From the NCBI GenBank assembly GCA_050013715.1, contig JBEKES010000005.1, forward strand, positions 1 to 35,421: a stretch of DNA of 35,421 nt, in the 5' to 3' direction. Source of the DNA: Candidatus Micrarchaeaceae archaeon. GTDB lineage: Archaea; Micrarchaeota; Micrarchaeia; Micrarchaeales; Micrarchaeaceae. Each line of letters starts with the position of its first letter. Position 1 is the stretch's first letter. The notes under the pieces were generated by a model. The model was given only the letters and a program-made list of their open reading frames with translations. It was not told the DNA's origin and ran no database searches. A program made the position numbers and the translations under genes. Below are positions 1,997 to 35,421 of the stretch, one piece after another.

Positions 1997-2061
1997 TGAA
2001 TCACATAGGTTGATTATATATTGTATAGAGCATCTTTTTAATTTAAGTGTATAAATAAGAA

Positions 2062-2073
2062 TCCCTTGGGGTG
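2062..2073 (-). repeat. Distal copy of the tRNA-Tyr 3' end (att-like), 1-nt deletion
   Basis: tccc-ttggggtg versus tcccgttggggtg at 3235-3247. Confidence 0.7.
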
Positions 2074-2118
2074 GGTTTACAAAAATGTCAATCCACACCT
2101 TATATAAGTTTAATAGAA

Positions 2119-3096
2119 TTATTTTATGTTATATTTTTCCGCTAACTTACGAATTTCATAGGTAAATTCAATCCATTTTCTTTCTGCTTCACTTGCACTC
2201 TCTTTGCTATAATCATAAAAACCTTTTGCAGTTGTAATACCTTCTGCACCACTTTCTACCATCTTACGCATAAGTTCTGGAACCTCTGTTGAGTTACTTA
2301 GTTTTGGAAGCAACCCTTCCATAACTGTTGCATATGCAGGAATACCTGTTAGATCCATCCATCTGAATGGGCCTGCAATAGTAGCCCAATATCCTATATC
2401 ATTGCGGAAAGATCTGTCTACTGTTTCAACATCAGCTATGCCAGATTCTACCAAGTGGATTGCTTCACGGATCATTGCATACATCAAACGATTTGATATA
2501 AAACCCTGAATATCTTGTTTCAAAAGTGTTGGTTCTTTTCCACATATGTCACCTAAAGCTAATGTACGTTCAATAGTTTCGTTTGATGTCTTCTCTCCAG
2601 GAACAACTTCAAGATATCTCATAATCTCTGCTGGTTCACCCCAATGCATTCCTATAAAACGTTCTGGATGTTTCATTTCTGCTTGTAGTGTTGTTATAGG
2701 TAAACTGGAAGTATTAGATGCAATTATAGTTGTAGATGGTACAATGTCTTCCATAATTTTATACACTTCACGCTTATTGGAAAGATTCTCATCGATAGAT
2801 TCTATCAAAAAGGTCGTGCTGTCTAATTCTATAGGTGATATTAAAATATGTAAGCGGGATTGGTAATTTTTCAACATTATTTTGGGTACAATTTCTCTGC
2901 GACCAAGTTCGTATAATGTTGATTCAATATGTTTACGGCTCTCCACTGCTTTATTGGAATTTTTATCGTAAGCATGAACTTCCAAACCACGTGATAGTAA
3001 ACAAGCAGCAATGCCTCTACCCATAAATCCTACTCCAATTAAGCCAACTCGTTCATTTCTTAAATGCGTTGTATTTTCTTCTGTTTTTGTGGTCAT
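2119..3096 (-). CDS. 3-hydroxyacyl-CoA dehydrogenase family protein
   Basis: GVGFMGRGIA Rossmann motif, ASNTSSL, RFIGMHW, GFISNRL, GPFRWMDLTG. Confidence 0.92.
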   Translation of the reverse strand: MTTKTEENTTHLRNERVGLIGVGFMGRGIAACLLSRGLEVHAYDKNSNKAVESRKHIESTLYELGRREIVPKIMLKNYQSRLHILISPIELDSTTFLIESIDENLSNKREVYKIMEDIVPSTTIIASNTSSLPITTLQAEMKHPERFIGMHWGEPAEIMRYLEVVPGEKTSNETIERTLALGDICGKEPTLLKQDIQGFISNRLMYAMIREAIHLVESGIADVETVDRSFRNDIGYWATIAGPFRWMDLTGIPAYATVMEGLLPKLSNSTEVPELMRKMVESGAEGITTAKGFYDYSKESASEAERKWIEFTYEIRKLAEKYNIK

Positions 3097-3187
3097 TTTA
3101 TCGTAAGTATATTATGAATTTTTAGATATAAATAGGTTCCTACAAATTTACCGTCGATTTGACGTCATATTTTATCTAAAGTACGGG

Positions 3188-3230
3188 ATTGAACACCCAA
3201 CCTTCGACGACAAACTAAATTTGACGTCGA
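3188..3230. repeat. tRNA-Tyr T-arm copy plus inverted repeat
   Basis: attgaacacccaacct 3188-3203 is identical to 3249-3264; IR tcgacgacaaa (3204-3214) / tttgacgtcga (3220-3230), one mismatch. Confidence 0.8.
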
Positions 3231-3234
3231 GAAA

Positions 3235-3334
3235 TCCCGTTGGGGTGAATTGAACACCCAACCTGTCGCTTTCTGGCATTGTGCCATGCATTCCAAACTA
3301 CAGGCGACCGCTCTAGCCATTGAGCTACAACGGG
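3235..3334 (-). tRNA. tRNA-Tyr(GUA) with 27-nt canonical 37/38 intron (3271-3297)
   Basis: Acceptor CCCGTTG/CAACGGG, D-arm GCTC/GAGC, anticodon arm GTCGC-CT-GTA-G^A-GCGAC, T-arm GGGTG-TTCAATT-CACCC. Confidence 0.95.
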
Positions 3335-3451
3335 ATATTTGATATTTAAGCATTAATATTTAATATCCTTTAGAGATGTATCAGTTTAATTAGGAACGCT
3401 TATTTAACTTTATTACTAGAGTTAAGTAGAAGAAAATATATTAATGATTGG

Positions 3452-6211
3452 ATGGTTGACCAGGAAGAGAGCGACAATGTAAACATATCTGGAAGCATTT
3501 CCCAGGACGTCATAAGGAAATACCATAGAACTCCTATTGCATTCTATCGCTTGAAAGACATGTATGTAGAGGTAATTGAGAATCCTAATTTTCTTGATGC
3601 ATTGCTTATAATCGCTTCGCTTCTTGCCTTTGCCGCGGCTTTTCCATTCTATCCGTTGCTGATACTTCCAATACTTGCGATAATTCTTCTTGTAGTTGGA
3701 TTAAGGCATGCCTTCCTGGGTCTTATCGTCTTGATGGTATTCATATTCCCAATGCTCATGTTCCAGACACCAGCTCTTGCATACCTTTTCATAATGATTA
3801 TGTCACTTTGGCTGGTCTTCGGATACAGGCACTATAGAACGCTCATATTCTCATTGATACTCACGCCATTGGCGCTGTCACCTTTGGGCTACATGTTCGC
3901 AATACCCGCATTGATAATAAGCGTATTGATAGTTGGCTACAAGCGAGCCTCGGTCCTTGCGGTCATATTCGTAATAAGCGTTGTTATGCTCTCTGCAGTT
4001 ACTGGCGTTCAGAACAGCGCTTATATAATATATGATGCAGGTTTGGCTCATTCGCAGATATCGAACCTTGCGGCCCTGAATTATTCTGTGCCAAACAAGA
4101 AGCCCCCAACATTAGCTACATTTGGAAGTGCATTTGGCGCAGTTGGAACGAATTTTGGAAACGAGTACATAGCCGGTTCCATATACACTGAATTTAATGC
4201 TCTGTTCTCATCATTGACAGTAAAGCCGTTGCAGTACCTTATTGACATGTTCGGCATAATAGCGATTGTAACCATAATAGACATGTCGGCAGTTGCGAGC
4301 AGATCCATGTACAAGGGAACAGAGGCAAGCCTTATAGGGCTTGCATATCCGCTTCTTTACTTCGGTCTTGCATTGCTATTCCATTATAATTTCACGATAT
4401 TGGTGCCGCTTGTGGGCTTCCTCATAGCGCCAGCGTTTCTCTATGTGCTTGAATTGTACAGAATAGACATAGTCAAGGCATTGGACATAAGAAAAGAGGA
4501 CATTCGCCTCAAATTCGGAGAGGCATTCGAGGATTTGTTTGCGACAAGCCCAACAGAGAAGTTCGGGGACATAGGAGACTACGAAGCAACAAAGAAGGAA
4601 CTCAAGGAGGCAATTGTATCCCCAATTGAGGAAAAGGGAGTTTCAAGAGCCTACAACATAAAGCCAGTTAAGGGTGTATTGCTGTTCGGACCTCCAGGAA
4701 CCGGAAAGACCATGATGATGAGAGCCATAGCAAATGACATAAGAGCAGGATTCTATTCGGTAAAGACATCAAATCTAATATCTCCGTATGCTGGTGAAAC
4801 AGAGAGAAGATTAGTCAACATATTTACAACTGCAAAGAAGAATGCACCTTGCATACTGTTCCTTGATGAAATAGACTCGATAGCAAGAAACAGGTCAGCA
4901 ACAAATGTTGATGAAACGCACAGGCAAATCTTATCGTCGCTTCTTGTGGAAATGGATGGCTTCCAAAGCATGAAGAATGTTGTATTGGTAGGTGCTACAA
5001 ACGTGCCCAATCTTATAGACCCTGCACTTCTAAGACCGGGAAGAATGGACCGCGCAATCTACATGCCGCTTCCTGACTTCTACGGAAGAAAGGAAATATT
5101 CAAAATATACTTGAAGAAATTGCCAGTTTCAAAGGACATAAACTTTGATGATCTTGCCAAAATGACAGAGAGGTTTTCCGGCGCCGACATAAAAGGGTTG
5201 TGCGACAATGTCGCGCAGCAGGTAGCACAGGAAGCTGCGGAGAAGCACAAAGTATTGGAGATAGGCCTTGATGACATAAAAAGCGCAATAACCGCAACAA
5301 AGGCATCGACAACCATTTCGCAATTGAAAGAATACGATAGATTCAAGATAGACTTCGAAAGAAGGACACTCAAGCAGGAAACGGTAGAGAAATCAAAGAA
5401 TGTTTCAATGGACGAGGTGATAGGCCTTGAGGAGGTAAAGAGAGCTGTTATAGATGCTGTTAAAACACCATTGGAGCATCCTGAACTATTGAAAAAATAC
5501 AACGTAAAAAGCATAAAGGGAATATTGATGTTCGGCCCTCCAGGAAACGGAAAGACACTGCTCATGAAAGCGATAAGCAACGATCTCAAGGATGTCACTA
5601 TGCTTGAAATAAACGGAGCTGATCTGGCGCAGCAGGATCTGGACAAAGCATTGGCAAACATAAAGGAAATGTTCAACAGAGCCATAGAGAATGCGCCTTC
5701 CATACTGTTCATAGATGAAATAGACGGCATTTCGCCAAAGAGAAAGAGCGCAAGCGAATTCGGAGTTCAATTGACTTCGGAATTATTGCAGGAAATGGAC
5801 GGCTTCAGGGAAACTCCTGGAGTTGTATTGGTATGTGCAACAAACAGGCCAAGCGCACTTGACCCTGCAATGCTAAGACCTGGAAGATTCGATAAGCTAA
5901 TATTTGTAGAACCACCAGATGAGCCAAGCCGGGCAGCGCTCTTCAAGTTCTATTTGAAAGATGTACCTACAAATGATGACATAGACTTCAAGAAATTGGC
6001 AAAGGAGACAGAAGGATATACCGGTGCTGACATAGGCAACATATGCAGGGAAGCCAAGAGCATTGCACTGGACGAGAACATAAAAACAGGAAAGGAGGCA
6101 CAGGTAACAATGGAAAGCCTAGAAGATGTAATAGGAAAAACAAAACCATCTGCGCCGGACAGCATGATCAGATCATATAAAGCATTTTTAGACAAGTACG
6201 GCCAGAGATAA
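3452..6211 (+). CDS. CDC48/VCP-like double AAA+ ATPase with N-terminal multi-pass membrane domain
   Basis: Two modules: GPPGTGKT / GPPGNGKT, FLDEID / FIDEID, DPALLRPGR / DPAMLRPGR; about 300 aa of hydrophobic segments at the N-terminus. Confidence 0.9.
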   Translation: MVDQEESDNVNISGSISQDVIRKYHRTPIAFYRLKDMYVEVIENPNFLDALLIIASLLAFAAAFPFYPLLILPILAIILLVVGLRHAFLGLIVLMVFIFPMLMFQTPALAYLFIMIMSLWLVFGYRHYRTLIFSLILTPLALSPLGYMFAIPALIISVLIVGYKRASVLAVIFVISVVMLSAVTGVQNSAYIIYDAGLAHSQISNLAALNYSVPNKKPPTLATFGSAFGAVGTNFGNEYIAGSIYTEFNALFSSLTVKPLQYLIDMFGIIAIVTIIDMSAVASRSMYKGTEASLIGLAYPLLYFGLALLFHYNFTILVPLVGFLIAPAFLYVLELYRIDIVKALDIRKEDIRLKFGEAFEDLFATSPTEKFGDIGDYEATKKELKEAIVSPIEEKGVSRAYNIKPVKGVLLFGPPGTGKTMMMRAIANDIRAGFYSVKTSNLISPYAGETERRLVNIFTTAKKNAPCILFLDEIDSIARNRSATNVDETHRQILSSLLVEMDGFQSMKNVVLVGATNVPNLIDPALLRPGRMDRAIYMPLPDFYGRKEIFKIYLKKLPVSKDINFDDLAKMTERFSGADIKGLCDNVAQQVAQEAAEKHKVLEIGLDDIKSAITATKASTTISQLKEYDRFKIDFERRTLKQETVEKSKNVSMDEVIGLEEVKRAVIDAVKTPLEHPELLKKYNVKSIKGILMFGPPGNGKTLLMKAISNDLKDVTMLEINGADLAQQDLDKALANIKEMFNRAIENAPSILFIDEIDGISPKRKSASEFGVQLTSELLQEMDGFRETPGVVLVCATNRPSALDPAMLRPGRFDKLIFVEPPDEPSRAALFKFYLKDVPTNDDIDFKKLAKETEGYTGADIGNICREAKSIALDENIKTGKEAQVTMESLEDVIGKTKPSAPDSMIRSYKAFLDKYGQR

Positions 6212-20389: not shown

Positions 20390-20503
20390 GGGATCCGAAC
20401 CCTAATTTCTTAGACGTGTTACTTCGAACCGCCGGGATAGGTCTCATATTCTAAGGTTAAGAGCCTAGTCTTTGTCTTATGATAAGGAATAGGGAATTCC
20501 TAA
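20390..20503. repeat. Cassette junction S3
   Basis: T-arm copy 20390-20409 (18/20 to 24055-24074), core 20430-20440, 38-bp block 20450-20487 identical to 21121-21158. Confidence 0.9.
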
Positions 20504-23970: not shown

Positions 23971-24044
23971 TTTACCACATTTAAATTTGCTTTATTAGAT
24001 ATTTATACCTTGCGTAGGCTTTTACAGTCGATTTGTCGTCGGAC

Positions 24045-24141
24045 CGCCGGGATAGGGATTTGAACCCTAATTTCCTTGCGGAAACCAGATCTCGAGTTTC
24101 GCCTATTTATCTGGCGCGTTACCGGATTCCGCCATCCCGGC
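24045..24141 (-). tRNA. tRNA-Ser(CGA) with 13-nt non-canonical 30/31 intron (24098-24110)
   Basis: GCCGGGA/TCCCGGC-G, long variable arm TTTCC-GCAA-GGAAA, spliced arm CCAGA-CT-CGA-GA-TCTGG; BHB helix CGCC/GGCG with AGA and AAA bulges. Confidence 0.92.
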
Positions 24142-24204
24142 ATGTGTAACACTTAAATATGAGTGATTAATAATACTTTAAATGTATAGATAATTCGTGA
24201 ATAA

Positions 24205-27198: not shown

Positions 27199-27654
27199 TC
27201 AACCGTATTTCTTGTTGTAAAAATCAAGTGCCTTTTGGGCCAAAGCCTCATCGGCATTTACTCCGAGTGATCCTACCAGCTTAACAATATTTTTTATGCT
27301 ATGTTCTTTTCCTAATATTACCAAAAAGTATATGGAGTAAACATATATCACAACATTTTCATTATTTACGTCTAGTAAAACATTCATTAGCTTTTCGTCT
27401 GGTTTTATTCCAATCGCATTCAATACTTTCGACATATTTTCTGTATTGATGTCCCTGCCGAGCAAATTAAGAAATCCGGAAAGATACAGATAAGGCTGTA
27501 TTTTCTTCTCATTGATGTGCTTGATTACAGTTTCATCATCCAATAATTTCCCGGCACCATCCAGTAATACATCGGAAGAAACAGTAGATATTTGCTCGAT
27601 TATGCTTTTGAACAACTGCATGTATATTTTCTTTTTGCTTTCCTCACTATCCAT
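27199..27654 (-). CDS. Protein with two tandem aP1/L12-like N-terminal domains
   Basis: YLY...L...G.DINTENMSKVLNAIGIKPDE and YVY...L...GKE.S..NIVKLVGSLGVNADE resemble the archaeal P1 N-terminus. Confidence 0.65.
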   Translation of the reverse strand: MDSEESKKKIYMQLFKSIIEQISTVSSDVLLDGAGKLLDDETVIKHINEKKIQPYLYLSGFLNLLGRDINTENMSKVLNAIGIKPDEKLMNVLLDVNNENVVIYVYSIYFLVILGKEHSIKNIVKLVGSLGVNADEALAQKALDFYNKKYG

Positions 27655-27749
27655 CAAATCTTAGAAGATTTCTAATGGAAGATTTAATAATGTTGCTTTT
27701 AGTAATGGACTCGCGGACTTACGAGAGTGGGTTTGTAGTAGAAACATAG

Positions 27750-27977
27750 TCAAATAGCATTAAACGATGCTATATTCCGCTTAGGATTTCTTAAGTTTTT
27801 TGCTTCTTCTCGAAGTGCCACCAAACCAAATTCGCCATGTACACGAATGGGTCTTAAAAATCTTTTAGTGTTTTCATCCGATGGTCCTTTGATTACTCTC
27901 CTAACATGCCTTAGAGCTTTCCTTATATCACTGATTTTTCTTGCCATGTCATTTCGCGTAGTTAGAGTATCAGCCAT
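27750..27977 (-). CDS. Small basic hypothetical protein (cassette cargo)
   Basis: 75 aa ORF, GTGGTAATTT-ATG leader, TTTAAATA upstream. Confidence 0.6.
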   Translation of the reverse strand: MADTLTTRNDMARKISDIRKALRHVRRVIKGPSDENTKRFLRPIRVHGEFGLVALREEAKNLRNPKRNIASFNAI

Positions 27978-28063
27978 AAATTACCACTAATTAGATATTG
28001 CTTGTGTTTTTATTTAAAACTTTATGTAATGGGAGTGAATTTGCCTTCCCAGATAACTGAAAA

Positions 28064-28176
28064 TGGACTCTGCGTACCTCTCACATCACGTAGGAATTAA
28101 CTTATGGTATAAAATGACATACTTTGATACCTTTTGATATATTCTATTGAAAGATACTTATAAATATTTCCTGAAA
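28064..28176 (+). repeat. Core plus conserved cassette left end (copy 1) containing a TATA box
   Basis: Aligns with 29838-29953; ttataaata at 28158. Confidence 0.92.
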
Positions 28177-28197
28177 CATATTATTTTGAGTGAGAAA

Positions 28198-28755
28198 ATG
28201 GCAACAACAAAACCTATATTCGAAAAAGATATACCAGTAGGTGCAAGCGTTATAATGCGAAAATATCCTAGAAATAGTGATGACATGGCGACTTATGTTT
28301 TCGGGACGTATTTTGATGATTTGAGAGCTGTTCGTGTGCTATACAGAAAAAATGAACATATTATTAATTTTGCAATAGAACCTGAGGATCACGAAAAATA
28401 CTTTCCAGGAGTAGTTCTTGAAGCAGATACACGCCATCCGAAAATAATATTAGCAAAATCAGCTGGTGTTGGTTCATTTAATCATGATTCATCTCAGGGT
28501 TCATTATATATTTCAGCACATCAGCTAATGTTTCATTTTCCTAAGAATGATTCACCAGTAGTCCAACTAGTTGATTTCTTAAGAAGCCTGCAAGATCGAC
28601 AGATAGATCAACTTCAAAGTGAACATACTCTACAGCAACAGGCAGGGCTGGCATTAAATCTAAAAATAGTTAGTACTTTGATAAATTTTGTATCGAGTGA
28701 AGTAGAAACACATCAAAAAGACACTATTAGTTTAATTAAAAGAGAAGTTGAGTAG
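28198..28755 (+). CDS. Hypothetical protein (cassette cargo)
   Basis: ATG 28198 (MATTKP) preferred, because TTG 28147 lies inside the repeated end, upstream of the TATA box. Confidence 0.7.
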   Translation: MATTKPIFEKDIPVGASVIMRKYPRNSDDMATYVFGTYFDDLRAVRVLYRKNEHIINFAIEPEDHEKYFPGVVLEADTRHPKIILAKSAGVGSFNHDSSQGSLYISAHQLMFHFPKNDSPVVQLVDFLRSLQDRQIDQLQSEHTLQQQAGLALNLKIVSTLINFVSSEVETHQKDTISLIKREVE

Positions 28756-28787
28756 CTAAGATTTCTTGTTTTTTCTTATTTGCATCC

Positions 28788-28833
28788 ATCCCACCCTGAT
28801 TCTCGAGGTGACACATCGAAACTGGACTCTGCG
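28788..28833 (+). repeat. Conserved cassette right end plus core (copy 1)
   Basis: 28788-28822 matches 30498-30532 at 27/35, followed by tggactctgcg. Confidence 0.88.
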
Positions 28834-29045
28834 TTCTTAGGGCTTTTGTTTCTGATTCTAATCCTACATTAAAATAGCATAACTTCGGAATAATATACAC
28901 TACTATTAATAAAAATAGTACAGTGGGCTTTGTAGGAAAACTCTGACTTTTCCAACAAAATAATTAGTTTTCCGACAAGTTGCAGTTCTATACGAAATAG
29001 AATAAATGTTCTTATATTATGAACAATAAAATGATATTGATAAAA

Positions 29046-29567
29046 ATGGTAGTAACTAAGCCAAACCCCCGTAAAATTTTAATAACTGGACTACCAGGAA
29101 GCGGAAAAAGTAGGTTGCATAAATTCCTTCAAAGTAAAGGATACAATTCTGTAGATGCTGATGATACATTTTTATCATATAATGGAAAGAAATTACCTGT
29201 TGGTGCAAGTATGAAGTGGCTCTTACAAAATCCACCAATGTGGAATGAAGAGAAACTTGGTGCCATTTTTGAAAAGAATAAAGACAAAGACTTATATGTA
29301 GTTGGAGTAGCACCAAATATGTTAAAATTCCTCAAGCATTTTGATGAGGTATATTATCTTGATGCAGATAGAGAAACACTAACATATAGGCTAAAAGCAC
29401 AAAGAAGTAACCCCTACGGAACTACAAAAGCTCAGAGAAGATTAGCAATATTAACCCTGCCTGTTGCAGTCATTGCATCAAAAATTGCAGGATTCAAATT
29501 CGTTGATGCATCTTTACCAACAGAACAAATATTCAATAAAATTTCAAACTCTAACGAAAATGCCTGA
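29046..29567 (+). CDS. P-loop kinase (shikimate/adenylate-kinase-like; cassette cargo)
   Basis: ITGLPGSGKS, VDAD, FDEVYYLDA....L..RL..R.SNPYG. Confidence 0.78.
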   Translation: MVVTKPNPRKILITGLPGSGKSRLHKFLQSKGYNSVDADDTFLSYNGKKLPVGASMKWLLQNPPMWNEEKLGAIFEKNKDKDLYVVGVAPNMLKFLKHFDEVYYLDADRETLTYRLKAQRSNPYGTTKAQRRLAILTLPVAVIASKIAGFKFVDASLPTEQIFNKISNSNENA

Positions 29568-29837
29568 ATACTTATTAAACTTTCTTACTTAATGCTTTAG
29601 AGAATGAAGTATTCATTTCTTCTACATCAGAATAGAATAGTGTAGCTATGGTGATAGTAATCATTACCGATGCAAAAAAGAGATATGTTTCAACGTCAGC
29701 ACCACAATATGTTCAAATTGCTTCAATAGATATAAAAGCTCCATAACAGATAAACCGAACTTAAAGTACAATAGACTTAAAGTCCATTTTGACGAGTTTT
29801 TGATGAGTTTGTCGTCTAATAAATGTGACCTAGTTTC

Positions 29838-29953
29838 TGGACTCTGCGTACTTCTCACATCACGTAGGAATTAACTTATGACATAATTTGATATACGTTG
29901 ATACCTTTTGATATCACCTGAATTTGAAAGATATCTATAAATATTTCCTGAAA
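29838..29953 (+). repeat. Core plus conserved cassette left end (copy 2)
   Basis: First 43 nt differ from 28064-28106 at one position; both end in tataaatatttcctgaaa. Confidence 0.92.
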
Positions 29954-29966
29954 GAGAATATGTTGA

Positions 29967-30431
29967 GTGATATGTTTGCCAGAAAAAGAAGTTCCTCAAA
30001 AAGCTAGACACGAGATATTGTTTAGTTCTAGATATAAAGAGACGGCCTTTTTATCAAATTTTTACCCATGCGTAATAAATATAGATGGTAAGACATATGC
30101 TAGTGTAGAGCATTATTATCAAAGTCAAAAAACTTTAGACCCAACATTAAGTGAATGGATGAGAAATGCACCTTCTGCACTTTATGTAAAGAAACTTACA
30201 GAAGTTTTGAGACGTAAAGATGTAAGAACTGACTGGCAAGAGGTCAAAGTAGGAATCATGAGAAGAGCAATACGTGCTAAGTTTACTCAAAACGAAAATC
30301 TAAAAAAGAAATTACTCGATACTGGTGATGCTGTATTGCATGAAGATGTTCCTGATGAACTATTTTGGGGAATGGCAGGACAGGATATGCTTGGCAAAAT
30401 GTTAATGGAATTAAGAGAAGAACTAAGATAA
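29967..30431 (+). CDS. NADAR (YbiA-like) family protein (cassette cargo)
   Basis: FLSNFY, SVEHYYQSQK, R.DW...K..IM..AI.AKFTQ, LLDTG, FWG, G.DMLGKMLMELREEL. Confidence 0.9.
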   Translation: MICLPEKEVPQKARHEILFSSRYKETAFLSNFYPCVINIDGKTYASVEHYYQSQKTLDPTLSEWMRNAPSALYVKKLTEVLRRKDVRTDWQEVKVGIMRRAIRAKFTQNENLKKKLLDTGDAVLHEDVPDELFWGMAGQDMLGKMLMELREELR

Positions 30432-30532
30432 ATTTAATATTTTTCTCAAAATCTTTTTCTTTAATTTTCATAAAATATTTACCTTTTAAAAGAGAGAATC
30501 GCACCCCAACTCTCGAGGTGTAACGTCGGAAC

Positions 30533-30643
30533 TGGACTCTGCGGGGATCGCACCCGCGACCTTCCGCTTTTTTGGGTTTACTTTTGATTAATTTTCAAAA
30601 GTTTACTTGCAAAGCGGACGCTCTACTACTGAGCCAAGAGCCC
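30533..30643 (-). tRNA. tRNA-Ala(UGC) with 39-nt canonical intron (30569-30607)
   Basis: GGGCTCT/AGAGTCC with G3:U70, TCCGC-TT-TGC-A^A-GCGGA, T-loop TGCGATC; intron hairpin ACTTTTGA/TCAAAAGT. Confidence 0.93.
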
Positions 30644-33807: not shown

Positions 33808-34069
33808 CTTACCACAAGAGAATTGAGCATTTGGTAATATATAAACTTTTACCTCAAAAAAAGCAGAATGTATATATACCTTTGGAAGTAAACTAATAAA
33901 CGGTGCTATTATGGCAGCAAGAGCAATCTAGAGGCTCCTGTATTTAGAAAGCTTATTTTTGAATTGGCTTGATGAAAATACTTAAATGAGAGCTAATGCT
34001 CTGTGTTGCGTATAATGCTGATGATGTCGTGAATTTTCGCGATTGATTATAGGAGAAGAAGCTTGCATA

Positions 34070-35421
34070 ACATTTTAAACCATCTAGGGGATGGCTTGGC
34101 TATAGCAGCGATGAAGGCCGTGGCAAGCTGCGATAAGCCCAGGGTAGCCGCAAGTCGGGCTTTGAACCTGGGATCGCCTTAATTGTGTAGCAATACATGC
34201 ATACGCGGGGAACTGAAATGTCTTAGTACCCGCAGGAAAAGAAAGAAATTCGATGCGGCTAATAACGCGAGTGAACGCCGTAGAGGGCAAACTGAATCCC
34301 TGCTTGCAAAAGCGTGGGAGATGTGGTATAGGAGGAATCCAAATCATGAGTTGAACATTCTGGAAAGAATGGCCATAGAGAGTGACAGCCTCGTAAATTA
34401 AGTGAAATGGAAATTACTATAATAGAGTAGTTCTGCTTGATTATGTAGAATGAATACGGGTGCATTAAAACCCAACCCTAAATATTGGCTATAGACCGAT
34501 AGAGAACAAGTAGCGTGAGCGAAAGCTGAAAAGAACCCACACGCGTGGGATTGAAAAGATCTGAAACTAGATGGTGAAACGAAGGTAAGGCATGAAAGTT
34601 ATGATAGCTGGTGAAGCTGAAAATCGAAAGATTTATGCGAACCAGAAGGAACAGTGTCTTATCATTCTTCTTGAAGCAAGAACCAGGGAGTATATAGGAG
34701 TGGCAAGTCGAAAGACGAAGCGAAAGCGAGTGCGCGCAATTTATGAGGCGCAGGGTATGAAAATGCCTTAGTCACTTTTATATGACCCGAAGCCGTTGTG
34801 AACTACGCGCGACCAAGGCGAAGCTAGACTAATGTCTGGTGGAGGCCTGCAACCTGTCATGGCATGTCCTGTTGGGTGAGTTGCGGGTAGCGGCGATATA
34901 CCACTCGAACACGGCAATAGCGGGTCCCCTCTGAAGTATCTTTAGGATAGCTCCAGGCGAGCTTGCATATGCGGTAGAGCTACCGAATAATTGGCACGGA
35001 ATCGAAAGGTTCCACCAATTTATCAAACTCCGAATGCATATGCTGCGTAGACCCTGGGAGTCGACCAGTTTGGGTAAGCCAGACTGGTGAGACTGCAAAG
35101 ATAGTGACTGAGGTTAAGGTCCCCAAATCCTAATTAAGTGTCTTGAAAGTAGGACACGTCATAGACAGCTGGGAGGTAGGCTCAGAAGCAGCCATCCTTT
35201 AAAAAACGCGTAATAGCGTACCAGTTGAGATGTATCTTACTGAAGATATACGGGGCTAAATTAGGTACCGAGACCTCAGAGTCTGAATAAGACTGGTAAG
35301 GGGGCATTTGGCATGGCAAGAAGTACGTTCGAAAGGACGTATGGACCGTGTCATAGGGAAAATCCTGGTATTAGTAACAGCATATATGGGCGAGAATCCC
35401 ATACACCGAAAGCACAAGGTT
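34070..35421 (+). rRNA. rrl: 23S rRNA, 5' portion (start approximate, runs off right edge)
   Basis: GGATGGCTTGGC...GATGAAGGCCGTGGCAAGCTGCGATAAGC, GAACTGAAATGTCTTAGTACC, GACCGATAGAGAACAAGTAGCGTGAGCGAAAG, GTPase centre GGAGGTAGGCTCAGAAGCAGCCA. Confidence 0.97.

Follow-up and report, generated by a model that had tools for sequence, protein, structure and literature searches.

The window analyzed in this study is a 35,421-nucleotide (nt) stretch of DNA of a Candidatus Micrarchaeaceae archaeon (assembly GCA_050013715.1, contig JBEKES010000005.1). Its region 27706–30543 was found to be a head-to-tail array of four tandem units (U0–U3), each 0.36–1.0 kb long and each with an intact open reading frame (ORF), stacked against the 3′ end of a tRNA-Ala(UGC) gene and bordered by copies of the last 11 nt of this gene. 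Two of the units share their left and right ends and enclose unrelated genes. We consider it probable that the array represents stacked, non-autonomous integrative cassettes, similar to cis-mobilizable elements (CIMEs), which would have entered the tRNA-Ala(UGC) end by site-specific recombination with an enzyme acting in trans. The original prediction, made from the window alone, had described two units at this locus. Both (U1 and U3) were confirmed; the DNA between and beside them belongs to two further units, so that the array holds four units and not two plus a spacer. Genomes of relatives are denoted below by G numbers (the present genome is G000) and contigs by C numbers.

The tRNA-Ala(UGC) gene and its four-unit array

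The tRNA gene occupies positions 30533–30643 of the minus strand (Rfam RF00005, 53.8 bits) and contains an intron of approximately 39 nt (30567–30605). It was assigned to tRNA-Ala(UGC) because of (i) the anticodon loop, UUUGCAA, (ii) the G3:U70 pair of the acceptor stem, seen in the Rfam alignment, and (iii) an intron-less copy in the congener G002, in which the anticodon loop and G3:U70 are identical. ARAGORN did not report the gene when used without intron mode, and labelled it tRNA-Cys with this mode. An intron-less form of the same tRNA, recognized by a 30566→30606 joint, was detected in two of four peat runs.

The last 11 nt of the tRNA (tRNA positions 63–73; 30533–30543 of the window), reading TGGACTCTGCG on the plus strand, constitute the core repeat of the array, of which five copies, all in a single orientation, lie within 2.8 kb. 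Outside the tRNA gene, exact copies start at 28064, 28823 and 29838, and an edit-distance scan identified the fifth, degenerate copy, TGGACTC-GCG, at 27706 (edit distance 1, a single base being deleted). The core extended to 12 nt, CTGGACTCTGCG, is exact at 28822, 29837 and 30532 and has one mismatch at 28063. When up to two mismatches were allowed, shuffled sequences contained a mean of 0.95 matches to this 12-mer, and four matches were reached in 2 of 100 shuffles. U1, U2 and U3 are therefore each flanked on either side by the 11–12-nt core, and U0 by a degenerate form of it; the tRNA gene itself is complete. By this repeat pattern, the tRNA-Ala(UGC) 3′ end is the predicted attachment site (attB) of the units.

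The outermost unit, U0 (27706–28063), begins with the degenerate core (27706–27715, plus strand), which is also the left border of the whole array. The core is followed by a left arm classified as D-type (27716–27770, plus strand), an assignment of moderate support (49–59% identity to the arms of G010, G008 and G182_U1). The cargo of U0 is a 75-amino acid (aa) ORF on the minus strand (27750–27977), which matches no family. The U0/U1 border is formed by the core copy ATGGACTCTGCG (28063–28074, plus strand), and U1 (28064–28822) carries a 185-aa ORF (28198–28755, plus strand). Beyond the core copy at the U1/U2 border (28822–28833, plus strand) lies U2 (28823–29837), which is built on another chassis: the DNA between its cores (28834–29836, plus strand) has B-type arms and contains a gene encoding a 182-aa AAA_18 P-loop kinase-like protein (29019–29567). 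The core copy at the U2/U3 border (29837–29848, plus strand) opens U3 (29838–30532), whose cargo is a NADAR gene (29967–30431, plus strand). Its product has 154 aa when read from GTG 29967; an in-frame TTG at 29976 is better placed behind the GAGTGA box described below.

One contig from a single peat run contained a joint, X3, that connects 28074 directly to 30533, with only 23 letters on its shorter side. This weak joint may reflect a form of the locus without U1–U3. In one further peat run different DNA abuts the tRNA-Ala(UGC) end, and this DNA may derive from another organism.

To the left of the array, a 152-aa ORF (27199–27657, minus strand) shows a weak match to TIGR03685 (archaeal ribosomal protein P1; 5.4e-7, below the cut-off). 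Its conservation in G009 makes it a probable host gene, which would mark the outer edge of the array. The last stretch of the window, 34063–35421, contains the 5′ portion of a 23S rRNA gene of archaeal type, which continues beyond the window. The tRNA-Ala(UGC) intron (30567–30605) and the intron of a tRNA-Ile gene (C1, ~40200) contain a hairpin of a common type, AAACTTCTT...AAGAAGTTT; a similar hairpin, changed on both sides of the stem, is found just outside the distal core of the arrays of G180, G182 and G172 (L233, L234 and L236).

Shared arms, unrelated cargo and a promoter-like block

Comparison of the unit ends revealed that those of U1 and U3 are closely related. The left ends are 91% identical over 77 nt (28064–28140 and 29838–29914) and, in an inner stretch, 78% identical over 64 nt (28147–28210 and 29924–29987); in a BLAST search of the whole 977-kb genome they appear as a single match with 86% identity over 113 nt (E = 1.3e-33). 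The right ends are 83% identical over 46 nt, core included (28788–28833 and 30498–30543). The predicted common ends were thus recovered by both pairwise alignment and BLAST, and the count of 31 identical positions among the 32 that follow the core proved correct on direct reading.

The sequences common to U1 and U3, referred to as A-type arms, comprise a left arm of 66–77 nt and a right arm of approximately 45 nt. The element-specific part of the left arm is located at 28075–28140 in U1 and at 29849–29914 in U3 (both plus strand); in a four-copy alignment, the U1 arm is 89–91% identical to that of U3 and 81% identical to a copy on another contig (C9:1293–1356). According to the alignment, what all four A-type left arms have in common is limited to the ~65 nt next to the core. 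The right arm of U1 (28778–28822, plus strand) is 72–78% identical to the right arms of C9_U0′, C9_U2′ and G010, and 64% identical to that of U3 (30488–30532, plus strand), compared with a shuffle maximum of ~0.6; the U3 arm now forms the 3′ trailer of tRNA-Ala(UGC). Pairwise identities among A-type arms span 0.57–0.89, with shuffle means of ~0.5 and maxima of ~0.6, and the weakest pairs are unconvincing when taken alone. In five copies the A-type right arm starts ~40–52 nt from the core. A gapless A-type right-arm pattern (≤3 mismatches) proved highly specific, being found in two of the 248 genomes of the order, namely in G000 (three matches) and G010 (one match); the reversed control pattern yielded one match.

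Other A-type arms of this genome belong to a second array, on contig C9, at a tRNA-Ala(CGC) gene (5703–5777) that has its own core variant, TGGACTCGGCG, with copies at 691, 2009 and 5705. This array comprises (i) C9_U0′, a unit cut by the contig end, of which an A-type right arm precedes core 691, (ii) a unit after core 691 with a diverged A-type left arm, a DUF4258/DUF2283 gene pair, and a decayed right arm and core near 1283, (iii) C9_U2′, with an A-type left arm (1293–1356), an AAA_18 kinase gene on the minus strand and an A-type right arm, and (iv) C9_U3′ (2009–5705; 3.7 kb), which adjoins tRNA-Ala(CGC) and contains ORFs of 165 and 827 aa. At both loci, tRNA-Ala(UGC) and tRNA-Ala(CGC), the core variant is that of the local tRNA. 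The 827-aa protein of C9_U3′ is rich in Asn, Ser and Thr and has an N-terminal hydrophobic stretch, and the 165-aa protein is membrane-anchored.

A-type arms are therefore carried by five units of this genome, the cargo being an ORFan (U1), a NADAR gene (U3), the DUF4258/DUF2283 pair, a P-loop kinase gene and, in the fifth unit, a segment cut by the contig end. The proposal that one pair of ends brackets unrelated genes is well supported by these five units and by other arm families, which behave alike in other genomes; the ends bracket further genes in the C9 units, and an A-like right arm recurs in G010.

The two cargo genes named in the original prediction, a 185-aa gene without a family and a NADAR gene, were recognized as such in profile searches, and their products are not homologous (BLASTP, E = 0.17). 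The U3 protein matches the NADAR profile PF08719 over positions 2–163 of 163 (5.4e-28; 98.7 bits compared to a cut-off of 35.1), as well as TIGR02464 (2.5e-26) and the PADLOC profile PDC-M42C (3.9e-16); its match to NF053876, “NADAR family anti-phage protein”, is below the cut-off (2.2e-15). The U1 protein has no match among Pfam, NCBIfam or PADLOC families and no relative but itself among 5.8 billion clusters. In a HMMER search of 1.84 billion representatives, the sole further match was to eight repeats of a 2949-aa protein, P0002 (U1 residues 72–135; E = 3.7e-11). An AlphaFold2 model of the U1 protein, computed without an alignment, was unusable (predicted local distance difference test score of 45).

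The U2 protein matches PF13238 (1.1e-8). It shares 36% identity with the C9 kinase that is encoded between A-type arms; the two kinase genes reside on different chassis and in different orientations. Homologues of the U2 kinase adjoin tRNA-Ala(CGC) in G009 and G179. The closest of them (50% identity; G009:C3, ~501760–502655; L167, L209) is encoded by the first gene downstream of tRNA-Ala(CGC) and has an N-terminal extension fused to it (265 aa); this locus has retained no distal core.

In both U1 and U3, the inner third of the “left end” of the original prediction consists of a promoter-like block, AAGATAnnTATAAATATTTCCTGAAA, followed 10–15 nt further on by GAGTGA and then by the start codon. 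The block and box are located at 28151–28193 in U1 and at 29928–29969 in U3, before the NADAR gene (both plus strand). A genome-wide scan identified 14 sites with up to five mismatches and seven with up to three, each set including the two cassette sites, and the sites precede unrelated ORFs. When the left arm was compared by BLAST with 60 relatives, the promoter part alone produced matches. Judged by this distribution, AAGATAnnTATAAATATTTCCTGAAA together with the Shine-Dalgarno-like GAGTGA is a putative generic promoter and ribosome-site consensus of the genome, external to the chassis. The suggestion that the conserved end supplies the promoter was consequently abandoned, because the block is generic, the A-type arms have only ~65 nt in common, and the kinase gene of the C9 A-type cassette lies in the opposite orientation.

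Cassettes at tRNA genes of related genomes

Comparison with congeners revealed a conserved backbone around tRNA-Ala(UGC), with an AHSA1-like gene on one side and a gene encoding a 132-aa protein (p132) on the other. The slot between the AHSA1-like gene and the tRNA has different contents in each genome read. In G010 it holds a 476-bp unit, located directly after the AHSA1 stop codon, in which a D-type left arm is paired with an A-like right arm, and which is a case of a core with one mismatch. The slot of G008 contains a 676-bp unit with an OmdA-domain gene. That of G009 contains a homologue of the 152-aa gene of the window and, directly against the tRNA, a 180-aa ORF, the distal core not being preserved, and that of G007 contains ~1.1 kb of other DNA. 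Exact same-strand pairs of the core no more than 8 kb apart are present in 5 of the 11 genomes of the genus (G000, G008, G007, G004 and G001).

Analysis of the 129 genomes of the family identified the core 11-mer in 112; the reversed control mostly gave 0–1 matches per genome. The survey of core matches covered 150 of the 327 found, and 13 same-strand clusters among these 150 were fetched. Many same-strand clusters with a spacing of 0.3–2 kb were seen among the matches listed. In the fetched clusters, the loci of the genus and G179, at least 21 short-core units were counted in 11 genomes of 5 genera, all but one of them 358–1329 bp long. This count is a manual reading, a unit being accepted where the left arm departs from the tRNA sequence directly after the 11-nt core. 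None of the 21 units contains an integrase. Their cargo includes PIN or PIN_2 genes with a small partner (three units), DUF4258/DUF2283, NUDIX, SnoaL and GNAT genes, an FAD-type oxidoreductase, OmdA, P-loop kinases, NADAR and ORFans.

The clearest case of movement is provided by cassettes G173_U2 and G180_U1, which are 92.5% identical over 1244 nt. The two belong to different genera, adjoin different tRNA-Ala genes and lie on contigs 42 and 484 kb in length. In 100-nt bins the identity amounts to 0.86–0.99 within the cassette and 0.27–0.39 beyond it, and the change coincides precisely with the opening base of the left core and the closing base of the right core. Apart from the cassette, the tRNA alone aligns between the two loci (8.5–9 kb). 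As judged by these borders, a related integrase-less cassette has moved as a discrete unit between genera. The G180 cassette has a G-type core distally and a T-type core on the tRNA side, which fits the entry of a G-type circle into a T-type site by a putative strand exchange within TGGACTC.

Parts of the G173_U2/G180_U1 cassette occur in 17 of the 129 family genomes, and mosaic cassettes were seen; in G179, G175 and G200 its left arm is found alone, ahead of other DNA. Like arms around different cargo were also found in G171, where two cassettes with similar left and right arms carry a PIN pair and a GNAT gene plus two ORFs, respectively, and in the D-type left arms of G010, G008 and G182, which have a mutual identity of 65–67% and different cargo behind each of them. 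Mixed and fused forms are present as well: the D-type left arm of G010 is paired with an A-like right arm, and neighbouring cassettes are fused near position 1283 of C9, where the internal core has decayed, and in G173_U1, which contains an internal copy of a left arm. Remnants with a solo arm are represented by G182_U2 (287 bp, without an ORF) and by a 127-bp left-arm remnant in G175. Two further pairings of arms, the B-type (U2) with the E-type (G171) and the C-type (C9_U3′) with that of G170, showed 36–49% identity only, and their kinship was not accepted.

Similar repeats were noticed at other tRNA genes of the present genome. An intron-bearing tRNA-Ser(CGA) was called by ARAGORN at 24044–24142 of the window (minus strand), with no Rfam match at the gathering score. 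An exact copy of its last 11 nt lies at 20439, 3.6 kb downstream, followed by a T-arm-like stretch, and the pair brackets ORFs of 175, 533 and 299 aa; it may delimit another integrated unit. On contig C1, the last 11 nt of tRNA-Ile(UAU) (40165–40279) are repeated exactly at 39813, 362 nt downstream and preceded by a T-loop-like stretch, in what looks like a mini-unit at another tRNA.

Proposed mechanism, rival explanations and known systems

In the mechanism that we favor, a cassette (left arm, cargo and right arm) would exist as a circle with an attP made up of right arm, 11-nt core and left arm. Exchange between this core and the last 11 nt of the tRNA would insert the cassette, rebuild the tRNA and leave a copy of the core on each side, and successive insertions at the tRNA-Ala(UGC) 3′ end would build up the stack. 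The recombinase would be supplied in trans from a plasmid, a virus or an integrative element; candidate enzymes are the tRNA-Ala-linked tyrosine integrases of the congeners G004 and G001 and of G172. We infer conservative site-specific recombination in trans because the repeats correspond to the tRNA end, the tRNA gene is restored, all units are stacked in one orientation, each of the two loci uses the core variant of its own tRNA, and the moved cassette has sharp borders. Cargo between like arms would change once neighbours have accreted, when deletion or recombination would re-pair arms and genes, in line with the accretion model for CIMEs (sections of PMC5704250) and with the exchange of modules between tandem archaeal elements (parts of PMC8371274). 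This route, rather than a dedicated capture enzyme, is the most likely origin of cargo diversity, since fused neighbours, mixed arm pairs and mosaic cassettes exist and make a special capture step unnecessary. The gene-capture step that had been proposed for this locus would not be required, a simpler route being seen near 1283 of C9, in G173_U1 and in the mosaics.

Several results weigh against this mechanism. No match to PF00589, PF00239 or PF01867 (tyrosine recombinases, serine recombinases and Cas1, respectively) was obtained in this 93%-complete genome, in which a Xer-type tyrosine recombinase was also not found, and G171, G173 and G180 (88–91% complete) have no match to PF00589 or PF00239. 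The cassettes have only 11 nt in common with the tRNA, compared to the 26–107 nt of tRNA sequence with which integrase-bearing, long-att core-bounded units start; a different enzyme for the 11-nt-core cassettes is possible. DNA close to the integrases of relatives shows no likeness to any arm, and no contig was found in which a right arm, core and left arm are joined beside an integrase. A left-arm 19-mer was found in metagenome contigs only on those of this organism (three loci on two contigs) and in one chance bacterial match, and it was absent from viral contigs. The A-type arms differ by 9–36%, and the insertions at this locus are therefore not recent. Contigs from four peat runs span the U0/U1, U1/U2, U2/U3 and U3/tRNA borders, and the order of the units is unchanged in all of them.

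Among the six array-bearing genomes tested for PF00589, four are without it (G000, G171, G173 and G180), and two, G182 and G185, encode tyrosine recombinases elsewhere in the genome. The sole recombinase-type gene of the present genome encodes an IS200/IS605 Y1 (HUH) transposase (C58:332–691; PF01797, 5.4e-39); no arm-like sequence flanks it. The ORFs to the right of tRNA-Ala(UGC) include no recombinase, and no integrase was found within ±3 kb of any of the 12 fetched loci other than that of G172. In the latter genome, two 282-aa PF00589 proteins are encoded inside core-bounded long-att units, which share an array with an adjacent PIN cassette. The nearest relatives of the G172 integrase (66–74% identity) are encoded beside tRNA-Ala cores in G004 and G001, members of the genus of the window. 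Neither the viral and metagenome contigs nor the order or the integrase regions of relatives yielded an autonomous element bearing A-, B- or D-type arms, and pattern and protein searches of viral contigs for the F-type cassette of relatives returned nothing. A scan of genome contigs with the pattern GAGGTGN{12,13}TGGACTCNGCG returned at least 119 stretches, all of them chance matches in unrelated, mostly high-GC bacteria, and the same pattern gave 19 chance matches in viral contigs; both scans were set aside. An open frame runs, by eye, through the notional right arm/core/left arm junction, and was considered as a sign of a split integrase of the Sulfolobus spindle-shaped virus (SSV) type; the frame is too short to judge, and no supporting integrase fragment was found.

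According to the strongest rival explanation, which we regard as unlikely, the units are dead scars, i.e. remnants of tandem elements that once bore integrases, with like ends reflecting related parents and with no movement and no cassette system. The lack of an integrase in the genome, the 9–36% divergence of the arms and the identical order of the array across the four runs are all consistent with this explanation, as are the decayed cores at 27706 and near C9:1283 and the solo-arm remnants of relatives (G182_U2 and G175). Tandem integration, and loss of the integrase once an element has integrated, are described for archaea in the available sections of PMC8371274. However, every unit of the window retains an intact ORF, in U1 and U3 behind a promoter-like block, and the near-constant start of the right arm in five copies makes independent deletions a poor fit. 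Arm families that persist across genera around different cargo, and an integrase-less cassette that is 92.5% identical between genera with borders at the cores, also argue for cassettes that move as units.

Less probable still is placement of the cassettes by a so far unrecognised type of recombinase or by a route without an integrase, with the tRNA-Ala end serving as a true integron-like capture platform. The absence of PF00589 from four of the six array-bearing genomes points in this direction, together with the difference between the 11-nt core and the long att sequences of integrase-bearing units at the same tRNAs, and with arms in which no inverted core-type repeats were seen by eye. Against this stand the completeness of the metagenome-assembled genomes (MAGs), which is 88–93%, and the fact that plasmids and viruses are usually left out of MAG bins; in addition, tRNA-Ala-linked tyrosine integrases are present in the same genus, and no candidate gene is linked to the arrays.

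We consider it very improbable that a target-duplicating transposon, casposon-like or of the IS200/IS605 type, produced the 11-nt repeats as target-site duplications. Casposons target tRNA 3′ ends and generate 14–15-bp duplications, and one Y1 HUH transposase gene is present on C58. The casposon variant was rejected because there is no Cas1 (PF01867), no inverted repeats between the left and right arm termini were seen by eye, and the repeat is 11–12 nt and not 14–15 bp long. For the IS200/IS605 type, the Y1 gene on C58 lacks arm-like flanks and the junctions fold no better than shuffles (z from −0.24 to +1.68); moreover, IS200/IS605 elements are not known to make direct repeats, and these are present here. 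A classical integron, or a cluster of attC sites lacking an integron-integrase (CALIN), with attC-hairpin cassettes recombined as single strands by IntI, is scarcely credible: the mostly single-gene cassettes with integron-typical cargo (toxin-antitoxin pairs, GNAT, NUDIX) resemble it, and most archaeal integrons so far are CALINs without IntI according to the portions of PMC9668308 at hand, but there is no IntI or PF00589 protein, the junction coincides with a tRNA gene's 3′ end, folding of eight junction strands as single-stranded DNA revealed no attC-like hairpin (z from −0.24 to +1.68 relative to shuffles), U1 and U3 have promoter-like blocks of their own, and cargo lies in both orientations.

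Integration into the tRNA in trans thus remains our preferred explanation of the array. A broader picture is tentative and on balance doubtful: a tRNA-anchored, integron-like cassette economy, in which self-promoted, sub-kilobase cassettes of one or two genes would be exchanged between genera of these ultra-small archaea on a few reusable arm families and stacked at tRNA-Ala ends, the arms being the heritable identity of the element and the recombinase being either never chromosomal (a “public good” of viruses or plasmids) or of an unrecognised class. Only a few ways of acquiring genes are known for streamlined episymbiotic archaea, whose genomes measure ~1 Mb. In the present case, the content of one tRNA slot varies from congener to congener among those examined, and the cargo is of an integron-like kind (toxin-antitoxin, NADAR, NUDIX, GNAT, kinases and ORFans). 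If mobilization in trans is true, it would parallel the gene shuffling of integrons by means of an ordinary tRNA site, and the short arms and 11-nt core would offer a tractable model for cassette-based gene acquisition and for the source of the enzyme. For annotation, recurrences of a tRNA's terminal 11 nt at intervals of 0.3–1.5 kb can serve as a marker of accessory genes in genomes of this kind.

Integration at archaeal tRNA genes has reportedly been treated by She et al. 2001 (“Gene capture in archaeal chromosomes”), and accretion of the CIME/ICESt1/ICESt3 type in Streptococcus thermophilus is said to have been described by Pavlovic et al. 2004. As summarized in parts of PMC8371274, archaeal tyrosine integrases use tRNA 3′ ends as attB, and tandem integration, integrase-less elements and module exchange are known; the tandem elements described there are of plasmid or virus size, and arm families around unrelated single genes do not figure in those parts. 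The ssrA-linked islands of Dehalococcoides are likewise stacked site-specifically at the end of a small RNA gene, but they are bacterial and larger (PMC3146451, in excerpt).

The tycheposon islands of Prochlorococcus, as outlined in sections of a preprint (bioRxiv 10.1101/2020.12.28.424599), also consist of stacked tRNA-targeted elements with partial tRNA copies between them, in which newer elements push older ones outward, and remnants or cargo modules act as plug-in cassettes of a streamlined genome. Tycheposons differ in carrying a tyrosine or serine recombinase, replication genes and up to 10 kb of cargo; the cassettes carry neither a recombinase nor replication genes and have arm families instead. 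With integrons and CALINs, in the account given in portions of PMC9668308, the cassettes share arrays of single genes, similar cargo, a frequent lack of an integrase, exchange cassette by cassette and usability by a trans-acting enzyme. They differ from them in having no IntI and no attC hairpin, in docking at a tRNA end, in the promoter-like blocks of U1 and U3, and in cargo in both orientations.

The closest likeness is to CIMEs, which, in the sections of PMC5704250 that define them and set out the accretion model, retain attL and attR without integration genes. The cassettes are CIMEs in this descriptive sense: they keep attL and attR, lack integration and transfer genes, and stand in tandem at the 3′ end of their target, in a pattern of successive site-specific integration into the restored site (PMC5704250, same sections). 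CIMEs, however, are there described as kilobases of decayed integrative and conjugative or integrative and mobilizable elements, whereas the present cassettes are 0.36–1.3 kb long, with one or two intact genes and conserved short arms. Further differences are the archaeal host, the absence of a conjugation module and the absence of the partner element from the genome. Titles and opening lines of abstracts on tRNA-integrated elements of Micrarchaeota and on integron-like tRNA arrays in DPANN archaea contained no description of such cassettes. Within that literature, the combination of miniature size, arm families reusable across genera and host assemblies that frequently lack a recombinase seems to set these cassettes apart as an apparently undescribed variant of tRNA-anchored integration.

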